From positions 181,995 to 245,994 of the forward strand of contig JAJNBL010000003.1 of NCBI GenBank assembly GCA_021156175.1: a stretch of 64,000 nucleotides of DNA. The letters run 5' to 3'. The notes beneath the pieces were generated by a model that saw only the letters and a program-made list of their open reading frames with translations, did not search any database and was not told where the DNA came from. A program made the translations under genes and the position numbers. Origin of the DNA: Rickettsiales bacterium. GTDB lineage: Bacteria; Pseudomonadota; Alphaproteobacteria; Rickettsiales; JAJNBL01. Shown piece by piece: positions 306 through 31,282 of the stretch. Each line of letters starts with the position of its first letter. The first letter of the stretch is position 1.

Positions 306-1028
306 ATGTCAAAAAGCAGTGATAAATCATATATTGTTATCGGAGTAAAAGCTAAACCTACCGATAGCCTCTCATACGTAGAAGAAAAGACACGATCGAT
401 CTCAAAGTCCTCTACCGTTGAGGCTTGTGCTAGCTACTATTTTGAACCTTCTCCTTCTTCTATAATGGCGCAAGCACAGAGCACATCTCTTAGTAGCTCC
501 TCCTATCAAGAGCGAGTTTCAAAGAAAAAAAGGCAAATCACTTCTCCTGAATCGAATGATGAAAGCTGGCTTGTACGTTCTGTAGAGCACATGAAACGGT
601 ACGGGATTTGTCCCCCAATAGCCATGTCGAAAAATGAAAAGCGGATCTTTGAAAAGATCAATGAGGAATCGCAGTACTATCAATCCTTTACGGGCATAAC
701 TGCCGTTAGAACCTTACTTGATGGCAAAGTTTTACCAAATAATGTCAGGAACCCCATTGAGTTAGAGGTACGATTTGATAGCTTTGCAAGTACTAAAGAA
801 TTTGGACAATTTGTTGCGAACTGCCGGTTCGATGGGGGAAATATTCCTGAAATCAAAGGAAAATCGGTCTTTATTCCTTATACCGCAATTCAGGATGTTT
901 TAGATGCCTTAAGGGTAGAATCCGGCACAGCGCACTATCCACTTTCGGAGATGCTGCGAGACGAGCTCGTGGAGTCTCAGAAGGGTAAAAATCCGTCCAC
1001 TGAAAGATCTAGCGTATCGCGTTTTTAA
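306..1028 (+). CDS. Hypothetical Ser-rich protein (240 aa), no recognisable family
   Basis: Intact ORF with an AAGG-type SD just upstream of the ATG. The N-terminal half is Ser-rich. The 3' end overlaps 1009..1248(-) by 20 bp. Confidence 0.5.
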   Translation: MSKSSDKSYIVIGVKAKPTDSLSYVEEKTRSISKSSTVEACASYYFEPSPSSIMAQAQSTSLSSSSYQERVSKKKRQITSPESNDESWLVRSVEHMKRYGICPPIAMSKNEKRIFEKINEESQYYQSFTGITAVRTLLDGKVLPNNVRNPIELEVRFDSFASTKEFGQFVANCRFDGGNIPEIKGKSVFIPYTAIQDVLDALRVESGTAHYPLSEMLRDELVESQKGKNPSTERSSVSRF

Positions 1029-1248
1029 ACGCCTCCCAGACCAGATATAACCCGCTGGTAATACATACCGTTACCAAGGTGGTGCGGATCTTCCCCCCAA
1101 TTTCTTCGCTTCCCTCCCGGAGTTTCCGAACATAAATCATATCCTTCTGCGTTTCCTGTGGGTCGTAAGGTGTGAAGCCAAGACTACTGAGAGTTTCAAA
1201 TACTACTTCTTTTATAATCTTCTGGAGATTTGCTTCGTCTAGTGGCAT
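1009..1248 (-). CDS. Small phage/GTA-associated protein with a C-terminal transmembrane helix
   Basis: 79 aa with a GAGGT SD before the ATG. Hydrophobic C-terminus TTLVTVCITSGLYLVWEAF. It is last in the minus-strand fibre series. It resembles small TM proteins next to fibre genes in alphaproteobacterial prophages; this is recollection and unverified. Confidence 0.55.
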   Translation of the reverse strand: MPLDEANLQKIIKEVVFETLSSLGFTPYDPQETQKDMIYVRKLREGSEEIGGKIRTTLVTVCITSGLYLVWEAFKNAIR

Positions 1249-1366
1249 ATAGTACCTCGTGCGGATAAAATCGTATATTTAGTAAGCAAGGCATTTTTCT
1301 CTTGAAATAATTAATAAATTATATAGAATTAACGAAATTTTAATGTTTGTATAAAAAGAGAACATT

Positions 1367-2335
1367 GTGGCTAAGCTAAGACAAATTGCGGACAAGATTG
1401 CAAACTTTTCTGCTAAAGATAGTCCAAGAGATATTATTTCTTCATTGAAGAATATAAATGTTAATGAGACATTTTCCTGGGGAGTAGGCCAAAGGACATT
1501 GCTCCTCCTTGCTGTAGAGGGAGGACATAAGAGGCTGGTTGAGGCTTTGCTTGAAAAGGGAGCCTCTGTTGATAATAAAATAATAGATGGTGAATCTGTA
1601 TTACAGGCTGCTGCACGTATTTCTTCTAAAGAAATTTTTGAAATTCTCATCAAACGATCATCCGTTGCTAATAAACCAAACGCGATTGAAGCGCTTGTGA
1701 ATATCGCGTTTGAGAGCCAGAATGTTGAAGTATATGGCTACTTTGAGAGTAAGAGGTTAGTACCTGAAAACTTCAAACCCATTACGAGTGGAAACCTTAA
1801 TAAGGCAAACGATTTCCTTCGTGACGTTACAGATCCCACAAAAGGATCTAAGAATGTATTGCCGTTTAAGACAAAAGCCTCGGCTTCTGCAGACGATGCC
1901 TCTTCCTCTCTTTCCTCGAATGACACGATTGATTTAACAGCAAAAGAGATTGCGCCCACAGTATCTCTTCAGCGTAAAGGTGCCAGAAAGATAGAATTAA
2001 AAGCTTCACATTCCTTCGATGAGTCTTCTTCTGTGCTTCTTCAGCGTAAAGATGCAAGAAAGATAGATTTAAAAGCTTCACATTCTTCGGATGATGCTTC
2101 CTCTTCTGTAGCATCCGATAGCGTAGACGATGTGGTTTCTTTGGAAGCAGAAGAAGTTTCATCTGTGGCAGGAAACAAAGCATGGGCTACTGGGATAGAG
2201 AATTCCAGAAGAATCTATACCGCCGCCACCCATGAAGAAGTGCTTGCCAGCGAGTCGACTCCTAGATTATGGAAAAGCAAAGCGACCAATAGTAAGTTGA
2301 AAGGCGCTCACGATTCCCCCTCTAACCACTTATAA
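1367..2335 (+). CDS. Ankyrin-repeat protein with a C-terminal Ser-rich tandem-repeat tail
   Basis: GTG start. ANK-like blocks: GQRTLLLLAVEGGHKRLVEALLEKGASVDNK and GESVLQAAARISSKEIFEILIKR. The C-terminus holds two 24-aa repeats, LQRKxARKIxLKASHSxDxxSS. Confidence 0.8.
   Translation: MAKLRQIADKIANFSAKDSPRDIISSLKNINVNETFSWGVGQRTLLLLAVEGGHKRLVEALLEKGASVDNKIIDGESVLQAAARISSKEIFEILIKRSSVANKPNAIEALVNIAFESQNVEVYGYFESKRLVPENFKPITSGNLNKANDFLRDVTDPTKGSKNVLPFKTKASASADDASSSLSSNDTIDLTAKEIAPTVSLQRKGARKIELKASHSFDESSSVLLQRKDARKIDLKASHSSDDASSSVASDSVDDVVSLEAEEVSSVAGNKAWATGIENSRRIYTAATHEEVLASESTPRLWKSKATNSKLKGAHDSPSNHL
1966..2109 (+). repeat. Two tandem copies of a 72-bp (24-codon) unit inside the ankyrin gene
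   Basis: ttcagcgtaaag occurs at 1968 and again at 2040. The flanking sequence is near-identical (aaagatagaNttaaaagcttcacattc). Confidence 0.8.
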
Positions 2336-29296: not shown

Positions 29297-29298
29297 AA

Positions 29299-29943
29299 TT
29301 AGGGTGCGGATCTCCCGCCTCCCTTCTCTTGATTGGCCTGTGGAGTCCCTTGTGACGGAACGTTTCCTCCTTTCTCAGGAATCTGATCGGCACGTACTCC
29401 TGCTTTGGAGAGTTTCTCGATTTGCTTTTGCATCTCAGGAGCCATCCCCTCAGGAAGGGCTTTAGGCGCTTTTTCCTTATCGGTTGCCATGATTTCTTCG
29501 CGCTCAGGCCCCGCTTTCTCTTTACCCTTCTTATCGGACAAGTTTACCCGATCCATCTCACTGCCTTTTTGGGCAGATTCACGTTCTTTAATAGCAAATT
29601 CGCGCTCTGGGCTTGCACCACGCTCAACGACAGAAACCTTGCCTTTATCTACATCTTTGGCAACTTCACGACGCTCTATTTCGAGCTTCGTAGGATCGAT
29701 TTCAGTCGATTTCTCTGGCTTGCGTTCTTTTTCTTCGGGGATAGCAAAGCCAGCTTTCGCTTCTTTGAGGAACTGTTTATCATCCAGCGCCCGCAGCGCT
29801 TCTTTCTTTTGGGCTTGTTCACTAAGGTCAGCTTTAAGGGGGCGAACATCCAGCGAGCTCGCCATTTCTTTTTCAGCTTCTTTATCGTCACCGCCAGTGA
29901 TGCGAGTAACAAGTCGAGAAAAACGCGAAAGGTCTAATGCCAT
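29299..29943 (-). CDS. K/E-rich hypothetical protein directly downstream of the portal gene
   Basis: 214 aa and highly charged. It has a KAPKALPEGMAPEMQKQIEKLSKAG block similar to its neighbour. A 2-bp gap to 28757..29296 suggests an operon. Confidence 0.55.
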   Translation of the reverse strand: MALDLSRFSRLVTRITGGDDKEAEKEMASSLDVRPLKADLSEQAQKKEALRALDDKQFLKEAKAGFAIPEEKERKPEKSTEIDPTKLEIERREVAKDVDKGKVSVVERGASPEREFAIKERESAQKGSEMDRVNLSDKKGKEKAGPEREEIMATDKEKAPKALPEGMAPEMQKQIEKLSKAGVRADQIPEKGGNVPSQGTPQANQEKGGGRSAP

Positions 29944-30031
29944 GGACTGCCCTACTGTTTAAGATTAGGATAGAGAACCACTAGGCTTTTAGAATAACAT
30001 GAATATATTAATAATTCAATACATTCTCCTT

Positions 30032-31282
30032 TTAGATTACGCTTATCCCCTCCCCCTCCTCTAGCGGAGACAACCCCAGCATCTGCCGTTTCTCATTTAC
30101 TGTCAGGAAGCTACTTGACTCAATCATGTTCCACATATTCTCACGCTTTGGTAGCAAAGCAGAGATGGAATCACTATCGTAAGATAACTTCAGCCCCTCC
30201 TCCTTATACATCGGCACAAGCCAGTTATTCATGGCATCAAGGACATGATCCAGGAGTGGAAGGATCGTCTGCTCCCACAATGCAAGCCGCGCTTCAGCCA
30301 TATTCTGATATTTATTATCCCCTGGAATTCCAAGGAGTTGTGGAGGAACACCAAATGCCAAGGCAATATCCCGTGCGGCGCTATGCTTCATCTCGATGAA
30401 ATCCATATCTTTGGGGCTTAAGCTCATCTCCTTCCATTCCAAACCGCCCTCTAAGAGTAGAGGCCGTCCTGCTCGAATAGCACCGCTATAGCTCTCATCG
30501 AGGTTGTTTTTTAGGCGTTGGAATTGCTCTTCGGTTAAGCGACCGCCTAGGCCTTCCTTATCCTCTTTAACAATTAAAGCCCCGCTGGGGCGGGCACCGT
30601 TCTGGAGCAATGACTGGTTCCAGGCGCCAGCTTGATTATGCTGGTCGATGGCATAGGCGGCTGCCTCGATTGGGGATAGCCCATACCAGTCATTTAAGGG
30701 GTGGAAGTGCTTCACGTGCAGGATACGGCTTTGGCCCGTTAGGGGGTGGGTTGGGAAATCCCACGATTGTTTCCCCACCGTATAACGGTATCCACGGGCC
30801 AAGCAGGTTGGACCTGCGATCACTTCCACCCGATCAGGACGTAAGTTGTGAAGCTCCATCGGTGCCTCGCCCTCAGGGCCCACCGCCTGGACGAAGGCGT
30901 TACCGCTTATCAACCGATGCGCCAAGAGGGTGTGGAAGAACTCCGCACCTCCCATTGTGGGATTTGGCTTAGAAAGCAGGGTTAGCAGCGGATGCTGGCG
31001 GATTTCGGTCTTGCCGATTTCATCCAGGCGGTGTAACTGTAAATCAACGGAGGCCGCTCCTTCCACGATCATGGAGATGGAACGGTACGCGATCACATTG
31101 CGTGTAAAAGCTTCATCAGCGAATTGGCGGTATTCCCGTGGCATCCAAACCGGTTTTCCTGGCGTTTGGACATAGGTTTGAGTGGCACTGCCAAACTGCT
31201 GGTAGAATTCCGGAATGGATTTTTTATGTAGAGTAGGATTTACTTTACGACGTAACAATTGCTGCAGGAATGACCGAGCCAT
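30032..31282 (-). CDS. HK97-family phage portal protein (RcGTA g3-like)
   Basis: 416 aa. Size and layout are typical of TIGR01537-type portals (..NVIAYRSISMIVEGAASVDLQLH.., ..GNAFVQ.., ..LSPKDMDFIE..). Confidence 0.9.
   Translation of the reverse strand: MARSFLQQLLRRKVNPTLHKKSIPEFYQQFGSATQTYVQTPGKPVWMPREYRQFADEAFTRNVIAYRSISMIVEGAASVDLQLHRLDEIGKTEIRQHPLLTLLSKPNPTMGGAEFFHTLLAHRLISGNAFVQAVGPEGEAPMELHNLRPDRVEVIAGPTCLARGYRYTVGKQSWDFPTHPLTGQSRILHVKHFHPLNDWYGLSPIEAAAYAIDQHNQAGAWNQSLLQNGARPSGALIVKEDKEGLGGRLTEEQFQRLKNNLDESYSGAIRAGRPLLLEGGLEWKEMSLSPKDMDFIEMKHSAARDIALAFGVPPQLLGIPGDNKYQNMAEARLALWEQTILPLLDHVLDAMNNWLVPMYKEEGLKLSYDSDSISALLPKRENMWNMIESSSFLTVNEKRQMLGLSPLEEGEGISVI

Follow-up and report, generated by a model that had tools for sequence, protein, structure and literature searches.

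A collinear, interspersed set of RcGTA-like particle genes in a Rickettsiales bacterium

The 64,000-nucleotide stretch of Rickettsiales DNA analyzed here (assembly GCA_021156175.1, contig JAJNBL010000003.1, positions 181,995 to 245,994; called the window below) is part of a 393-kb JGI metagenome contig and carries particle genes resembling those of RcGTA, the gene transfer agent (GTA) of Rhodobacter capsulatus. These genes are collinear on the minus strand in RcGTA order, span 30.3 kb, and account for 39% of that span. Together with a g15 homolog to the left of the window, at least 17 particle-related genes form one collinear locus over ~41 kb (g15 to portal). The locus is likely a vertically inherited RcGTA-like set that was once compact and has been expanded by insertions at gene junctions. 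Its ancestor would have been a compact, head-to-tail RcGTA-like cluster, into which foreign or young genes (ankyrin genes and orphan open reading frames, ORFs) and the relocated housekeeping genes recO, cysQ, and HGLS would have been inserted at intergenic junctions only. Such growth, by insertion and not by inversion or translocation, would have taken the span from ~10 kb to more than 40 kb, and since it was confined to intergenic junctions, gene order and strand would have been preserved.

Gene content and order

An earlier reading of the window, made from its letters alone (the sequence-only reading), had proposed an RcGTA/HK97-type gene set. Profile hidden Markov models (HMMs) bear this out, with Pfam matches above the curated cut-off for the portal, S78 protease, HK97 capsid, g6, g8, g12, g13, lysozyme, and DUF2793 proteins. 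All the genes it listed were confirmed; it overlooked orf277, a 65-amino-acid (65-aa) ORF, and a DUF2335 gene, and a g15 gene lies outside the window, in the left flank. Its description of a canonical head-to-tail set holds for the ancestral order on one strand but not for completeness, since the ~84 kb examined (the window and ~10 kb on each side) have no terminase, g7, tail tube, or tail chaperones. Left-flank coordinates refer to contig L053, position p of which equals window position p-9695. The particle-related genes are as follows, with E values of profile matches in parentheses and identities given to L057, the metagenome contig that is the closest relative, and to the related locus L058.

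30032..31282, minus strand: portal protein (g3), PF04860 (1.9e-87, full profile)
25379..26014, minus strand: prohead serine protease (g4), PF04586 Peptidase_S78 (4.7e-34)
22858..24054, minus strand: HK97-fold major capsid protein (g5), PF05065 (1e-81)
22309..22722, minus strand: orf137, probable jellyroll capsid decoration/cement protein, phrog_5707 (5.5e-23), no Pfam match
18324..18890, minus strand: head-tail adaptor (g6), PF05135 Phage_connect_1 (7.4e-6, above cut-off), 53% identical to L057
17898..18305, minus strand: tail terminator/completion protein (g8, DUF3168), PF11367 (2.9e-11)
13932..14765, minus strand: orf277, conserved coiled-coil protein at the tape-measure position, a member of the conserved set by homology
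12698..13303, minus strand: distal tail protein (g12, DUF2460), PF09343 (1.5e-69, match listed for 12698-13351), 67% identical to L057
10198..11055, minus strand: baseplate hub (g13), PF09931 Gp84_N (1.7e-60) and PF09356 BR0599 (6.5e-29)
9882-10079, minus strand: 65-aa ORF, 49-60% identical in L057 and L058
9359-9904, minus strand: DUF2335 membrane protein, PF10097 (2.8e-10) and phrog_3996 (3e-17)
6573..7025, minus strand: holin with three transmembrane (TM) segments, at the expected position, PF11351 GTA_holin_3TM (3e-4, below cut-off)
6064..6576, minus strand: endolysin (phage lysozyme), PF00959 (1.1e-44)
5574..6044, minus strand: g14-like NlpC/P60 peptidase, PF00877 (4.5e-4, below cut-off)
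3594..5048, minus strand: DUF2793 tail-fibre protein, PF10983 (5.8e-26, match listed for 3594-5126), to which a precomputed table adds PF26209 Phage_phiTE_241_C
2322..3389, minus strand: fibre-like protein with four ~85-aa repeats, recognized by repeat analysis, no HMM match
1009..1248, minus strand: small phage-family protein with a C-terminal hydrophobic segment, phrog_6420 (8.7e-15), no Pfam match
6.5-9.7 kb left of position 1, minus strand: g15 "megatron," 1233 aa, GTA_TIM (2.1e-72), Phage-tail_3 (5.7e-36), and Rcc01698_C (5e-21)

The set continues leftward across the window edge (1..305), and three more ankyrin genes separate g15 from the small TM gene. Here g15 is placed after the fibre genes and does not adjoin g14.

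Could this arrangement be a chimeric join of metagenome fragments, as a metagenomic source might allow? Contigs from other samples (two JGI/Logan samples and a further Logan run) are 99.4-100% identical to the window, and independent contigs reproduce the gene order over window positions -9.7 to 5.1 kb, 9.3-22.7 kb, and 21.0-28.2 kb, with single-assembly support for 5.1-9.3 kb and 28.2-31.3 kb. The suspicion that the collinearity is an assembly artefact is refuted for most junctions, and we give it virtually no chance.

Window positions 33-64 kb hold housekeeping genes (rpoD, dnaG, gltA, ispH, trmFO, mdh, purB, and gyrA), as do the next 10 kb to the right. No Pfam match to integrase, repressor, or replication families was found in the ORFs scanned across the ~84 kb (all but a few small ones), and an Rfam search returned two tRNAs and nothing else. 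The usual marks of a prophage (an integrase, regulatory and replication modules, atypical composition, and a patchy distribution) are lacking at the locus, which instead has the features expected of a GTA: no phage replication, integration, or lysogeny genes, a host-like composition, and vertical inheritance.

Composition and selection

At third codon positions, the G+C content (GC3) of the particle genes does not differ from that of housekeeping genes (0.49 versus 0.52; P = 0.38), whereas inserted non-housekeeping ORFs lie at 0.39 (P = 3e-5) and ankyrin genes at 0.34-0.36. Against L057, dN/dS is 0.08-0.26 for the capsid gene, orf137, g6, g8, orf277, g13, and the DUF2335 gene (0.08 for g13, ~0.10 for the capsid gene and orf277, and 0.12 for orf137), values that are rough and of an upper-bound kind because dS is saturated (at least 1.8). 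Single-nucleotide polymorphisms (SNPs) between strains are mostly synonymous, with synonymous-to-non-synonymous counts of 8:2 in g15 and of 13:3 and 18:4 in the repeat fibre gene, and all listed particle ORFs are full length relative to their profiles. Judged by such comparisons, the particle genes are old residents under purifying selection and the inserts younger or foreign.

These data agree with the sequence-only reading, which took the intact ORFs as a sign of something other than simple decay and of a maintained, domesticated element; the latter idea gains from the host-like GC3, from dN/dS values of at most 0.26, and from a gene order common to more than 25 Rickettsiales loci. The opposing view holds that the locus consists of decaying remnants of one or several HK97-type prophages, functionless and drifting to loss. 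Terminase, g7, g9, and the tail chaperones are indeed missing from the examined region, homologs of orf137 occur also in phage-like clusters of Phenylobacterium and Tundrisphaera, and small clusters have been found to be more virus-like (Shakya et al., PMC5721377). Drift of this kind is hard to square with full-length ORFs, with dN far below a saturated dS and mainly synonymous strain SNPs, with host-like composition and no integrase or lysogeny genes seen, or with the same order across many Rickettsiales lineages. Decay is therefore a very unlikely account of the locus.

Related loci

The nearest capsids, apart from that of L057 (75% identity), are 57-64% identical and come from metagenome-assembled genomes (MAGs) of uncultured Rickettsiales, followed by Midichloriaceae at ~50%; the portal is 55-64% identical to portals of Rickettsiales MAG loci. 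Farther away, a sphingomonad large cluster (L034) has a capsid only ~40% identical to the window's. The order portal, protease, capsid, orf137, g6, g7, g8, (g9), g12, g13, DUF2335 or g14, (g15) recurs in more than 25 Rickettsiales loci. Four loci are compact (L010, L011, L008, and L014). L010 holds 11 RcGTA homologs, from the large terminase gene (TerL) to g12, in ~11 kb; in L011, g8 abuts g12 with no tube gene between them, g15 stands directly behind g14, and a homolog of the small TM protein directly behind g15.

In six other loci (L005, L006, L009, L016, L017, and L057), stretching affects the same junctions as in the window. The cargo found in relatives differs from locus to locus: ankyrin and pentapeptide proteins in L006, TPR proteins in L016, PMT in L022, and a cNMP-binding protein, a 2OG-Fe oxygenase, and a NUDIX protein in L057. 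Apart from homologs of orf189 and orf277, no counterparts of the window's inserts were found in relatives. Since relatives are stretched at the same junctions with differing cargo, insertion at junctions is recurrent in this group, and the window is the most stretched case seen. What separates the blocks of the window is lineage-specific inserted material.

Several genes of the window are best understood from these relatives. In 12 of them g7 occupies the gap between g6 and g8; here g7 is absent and g8 begins 18 bp past g6. The protein encoded by orf277 has no Pfam or PHROG match and is 40% identical to the product of an L057 gene located, on the GTA strand, between g9 and g12 (in L058 the homologous gene runs the other way); it may be a tape measure, a role suggested solely by its place at the g11 position. 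Thirteen related loci, with Rickettsia and Tisiphia among them, have a DUF2335 homolog behind g13 (L039-L045, L051, L057, and L058 show this arrangement), and the 65-aa ORF is kept in the nearest relatives; the two genes (9359..10079) are a conserved two-gene module after g13. RcGTA is not known to have a DUF2335 gene at this position or a DUF2335 module. The g14-like protein is 40-50% identical to the product of the gene after g13 in L008, L010, L011, and L018, and the holin-lysozyme pair is found also in L049.

Directly behind the capsid gene, homologs of orf137 are present in ~15 relatives. An AlphaFold (AF2) model of its product is a jellyroll (pLDDT 85), and the best structural match is chain 3j4u_H of a capsid entry of Bordetella phage BPP-1 (TM-score 0.61), which we take to be the BPP-1 cement protein. 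By its modeled fold and this match, orf137 probably encodes a capsid decoration protein. We know of no gene between g5 and g6 in RcGTA, and of no jellyroll decoration gene after g5.

Two direct repeats of ~100 nt, 89% identical, flank orf137 (22201-22318 and 22753-22867), and a related inverted copy lies near 33357-33439. Inside the cluster of nine related loci, between orf137 and g6, there is an ORF of ~113 aa; a 93-aa ORF of the window (60544-60825, plus strand), itself without a family match, is 28-41% identical to it and lies 38 kb away from that cluster position, beside a 990-aa dehydrogenase-domain gene.

Missing genes and the predicted particle

If the set is functional, its head would comprise a protease-matured HK97 capsid, the portal, and the jellyroll decoration protein, and its neck the g6 adaptor and g8 terminator. 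Directly beneath the neck would follow g12, g13, the g14 peptidase, the g15 megatron, and the fibres, with no tube between; the holin and endolysin would provide for release. As no tube gene is present in the ~84 kb, the likely product is a short, tube-less particle. This prediction is in line with the pattern of head genes kept and tail parts missing in other Rickettsiales (PMC9254644) and with the tube-less compact locus L011.

Several observations weigh against an inherited set that is still whole and working. TerL, g7, g9, g10, and a recognizable g11 were found neither in the window nor in the ~10 kb on either side, and relatives do have TerL, g7, and g9, with TerL near the portal. Searches by tblastn with TerL from seven relatives gave no homolog in the window, no terminase is listed in the gene tables of either ~10-kb flank, and g7 (Phage_HCP) and g9 (Phage_tail_2) likewise have no window homolog by tblastn. 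A database search with g9 of the closest relative yielded no copy from this organism's samples, the best non-self match having 49% identity and coming from unrelated samples. It may be that essential parts are gone, or that they are encoded outside the examined region, on the 393-kb contig or in the remaining genome; a metagenome scan with an alignment of nine TerL sequences was uninformative here, the source contig not being among the matches listed. The holin and lysozyme genes may be later acquisitions because their GC3 is low (0.39-0.41; holin, 0.41), the saturated dS blunts the selection estimates, and enumeration of k-mers in 13 upstream regions gave no shared motif above shuffles. That particles are actually made is about as likely as not. 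That they still move DNA is doubtful, as packaging depends on a terminase and none was located in the examined region.

In samples unrelated to the window's, loci L141-L148 carry a lone g9 tail-tube gene flanked by housekeeping genes (trpC-type IGPS) that run on the opposite strand; here a GTA gene stands in full isolation.

Inserted genes and host interaction

The families of the intervening genes noted by the sequence-only reading were confirmed: recO, a cysQ-type Inositol_P phosphatase, the HGLS/YdcJ gene, and, within the window, five ankyrin-type genes, along with two paralog pairs, orf209/orf223 and Ank149/orf178. The five ankyrin genes are the following.

14968-16533, plus strand: ankyrin-repeat gene, Pfam Ank families
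16716-17813, plus strand: ankyrin-repeat gene, Pfam Ank families
1367-2335, plus strand: further inserted ankyrin gene
24228-24677, plus strand: further inserted ankyrin gene
24846-25382, plus strand: further inserted ankyrin gene, assigned through its paralogy to 24228-24677 only

Contrary to the statement that intervening genes lie mostly on the opposite strand, 11 non-particle genes are on the plus and 10 on the minus strand; it is the ankyrin genes that are uniformly opposite to the particle genes (8 of 8; P = 0.008). Two further comparisons failed: BLASTP does not support orf214/orf179 as a paralog pair, and orf223/orf209 have no significant similarity to the L057 gene between g12 and g13. 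Within the ankyrin gene at 1367-2335 there is a 72-nt tandem duplication, 87% identical (window 1966-2104), which yields a repeated LQRKxARKIxLKASHS segment.

Eight ankyrin genes among ~47 genes in the ~41 kb from g15 to the portal, versus none among ~40 in ~43 kb of flanks (Fisher P = 0.007), is an enrichment, though a regional one, measured against flanking housekeeping DNA and not comparable with the rest of the genome. The enrichment is specific to this lineage and recalls the eukaryotic association module (EAM) of Wolbachia phage WO, reportedly described by Bordenstein and Bordenstein in 2016 (cited in PMC9254644 and PMC10299305). In both cases a Rickettsiales genome has ankyrin and other eukaryote-like genes as direct neighbors of structural and lysis genes of phage type. 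The EAM forms a single contiguous block within a temperate phage genome that is packaged, whereas the ankyrin genes here occur one or two at a time among domesticated particle genes.

The locus might be read as an effector neighborhood, housing genes for host interaction that share the particle's regulation or are even delivered by it. The particle would then be a capsid-plus-baseplate device, lacking terminase and tube, that has been turned to host interaction; the ankyrin and orphan genes would serve it as co-regulated cargo or as an accessory module and be to the GTA what the EAM is to phage WO. The regional count and the uniform strand of the ankyrin genes are in its favor, and several of them are head-to-head with a particle block; that geometry, however, is automatic for any opposite-strand insertion. 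Beside g15 stands orf379, with five non-synonymous SNPs and one synonymous SNP between strains, the reverse of the particle genes, and host-interaction repurposing has been raised as a possibility for related sets by George et al. (PMC9254644). On the other hand, the upstream regions share no motif, ankyrin ORFs near the cluster in relatives are rare (6 in 49 loci, one inside a cluster, and in few loci), and the inserts of relatives are mostly unrelated to those of the window and include plain metabolic genes. We regard this account as unlikely. The same facts, together with CtrA-like boxes unconserved in relatives (see below), fail to sustain the suggestion that the locus is an insertion hotspot or a co-regulated neighborhood.

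The gene orf379 (L053 3333-4472; window -6362 to -5223) is itself head-to-head with g15. Its designation as an LRR protein came from a weak precomputed match that was not reproduced.

Regulation

Under the preferred account, an inherited set expanded at its junctions, opposite-strand inserts break any single operon, and from this we infer a separate promoter for each block, from which that block would be transcribed. As for translation signals, AGGAG-like sequences are seen by eye ahead of most particle gene starts. Scans with sigma-70 promoter and terminator consensus sequences gave matches at or below chance. In Rhodobacter, GTA expression is controlled by the host regulators CtrA and GafA. 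CtrA-like boxes (TTAA-N7-TTAA) number 7 in the window versus 2.2 expected; the intergenic ones (42425-42439, 42492-42506, 31292-31306, 16682-16696, and 1329-1343) all start with TTAAC; one of them immediately precedes the ATG of the portal gene, and another precedes Ank365. These boxes are mildly over-represented, yet those upstream of particle genes are not conserved in 32 related loci, and CtrA control of the particle genes is at best a candidate.

Relation to known GTAs

The locus shares with RcGTA homologs of g3, g4, g5, g6, g8, g12, g13, g14, and g15 in the same relative order, except for g15 after the fibres, as well as a holin/endolysin pair and a DUF2793-type fibre. RcGTA itself is contiguous over ~15 kb and complete (with g1, g2, g7, and g9-g11), and its lysis and fibre genes are at distant loci; Hynes et al. 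are said to have described this multilocus genome in 2016 (cited in PMC9254644). In the region examined here, the large terminase (g2), which serves headful packaging of host DNA, and the rest of a complete tail (g7, g9, g10/g10.1, and a recognizable g11) are lacking.

Reduced GTA sets in Rickettsiales have reportedly been described by Lang and Beatty in 2007 and by Christensen and Serbus in 2020 (cited in PMC9254644). George et al. 2022 (PMC9254644) find reduced sets under purifying selection to be widespread in Rickettsiales and Holosporaceae, a genome having more than one cluster and the terminase being set apart. The contrast that the sequence-only reading drew with the contiguous ~15-kb RcGTA overlooks such published reduced and fragmented Rickettsiales sets (PMC9254644; PMC10732058, Fig. 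5D legend; PMC5721377). The window set has the properties of the reduced endosymbiont GTAs of George et al. (PMC9254644): it retains capsid and portal along with distal tail, hub, and megatron, lacks the tube and further parts of the tail, and is under purifying selection (in that paper's sets, stronger on head genes). Their genes are split over several places, often with the terminase away from the cluster. Unlike them, the present set keeps at least 17 genes collinear over ~41 kb, with lysis and fibre genes linked and eight ankyrin genes between the blocks; this stretched but ordered state and the insert content are not described in that paper (PMC9254644).

For Orientia tsutsugamushi, the legend to Fig. 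5D of Giengkam et al. 2023 (PMC10732058) has host genes drawn between GTA genes. As far as that legend goes, both organisms keep a conserved GTA subset, that of Orientia being terminase, portal, protease, capsid, DUF2163, and TIM-barrel protein; there, six genes lie in several genomic regions, whereas here more genes form one ordered locus in which no terminase was found (PMC10732058).

Shakya et al. 2017 counted a cluster as large if it had 9 or more RcGTA homologs and any two neighboring ones were separated by fewer than 15 ORFs, and in Rickettsiales had only small clusters of at most 5 genes (PMC5721377). The present set has 9 homologs, counting g15 in the left flank, with a largest gap of ~9 ORFs, and L010 with its 11 homologs qualifies too. 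RcGTA-like sets of large-cluster grade in environmental Rickettsiales are a modest extension of the published picture; if true, large clusters are not restricted to the clade in which Shakya et al. 2017 placed them, which would point to a deeper origin of the element. Reduced and interrupted GTA sets being already known in Rickettsiales, the locus is an unusually clear example and no new kind of system.

What the locus and its relatives add is a series from compact to stretched to scattered, which illustrates a possible origin of the fragmented sets seen in Rickettsia, Orientia, and Wolbachia: one insertion after another at gene junctions, with every particle gene held intact by selection. The tube gene has been lost repeatedly and the terminator, distal tail, hub, and megatron have been kept, which makes the short-tailed particle a concrete prediction, and the ankyrin enrichment is a lead on whether such particles tie to host manipulation.

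Further features of the region

In the lysis region, recO precedes the holin gene on the same strand, with only 43 bp from its end to the holin start (window 7025-7069), and in the run orf191, recO, holin, lysozyme, g14, orf122 every gap is at most 43 bp, so that the lysis cassette stands directly downstream of a DNA-repair gene.

The repeats of the fibre-like protein are anchored at residues 38, 122, 208, and 294; pairwise z scores are 5-15 in five of six comparisons and 1.8 for repeat 1 versus repeat 4. The protein is 33-36% identical to the product of the last large ORF of the L035 phage-like cluster. At 2913-2955 of its gene, 13 strain SNPs (11 synonymous) fall within 43 nt, suggestive of a tract of gene conversion or recombination, be it between strains or among the internal repeats.

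MITE-like palindromic intergenic elements (after miniature inverted-repeat transposable elements) occur at window positions 5064-5191, 9237-9370, 26034-26150, 33325-33462, and 37942-38007. Their core, GTCATYCCC-N8-GGGRATC, presumably resembles the dRS3-type ATTCCC-N8-GGGAAT repeat of Neisseria; there are usually two inverted cores ~45 nt apart, and 9 cores were counted versus 0.06 expected. With three of the five elements in the cluster region, they are not enriched there, and their candidacy as the cause of the cluster splits was rejected. The N terminus of the long DUF2793 ORF (5049-5126) reads out of one such element.

Right of the particle genes, rpoD (33494-36106) has a Lys/Pro-rich N-terminal extension of ~190 aa, with region 1.1 beginning at residue 203; the JGI call is 825 aa, which leaves the true start uncertain. 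Farther on, an RTX-repeat gene (42525-43715) has two of the TTAA-N7-TTAA boxes, those at 42425-42439 and 42492-42506, just upstream.

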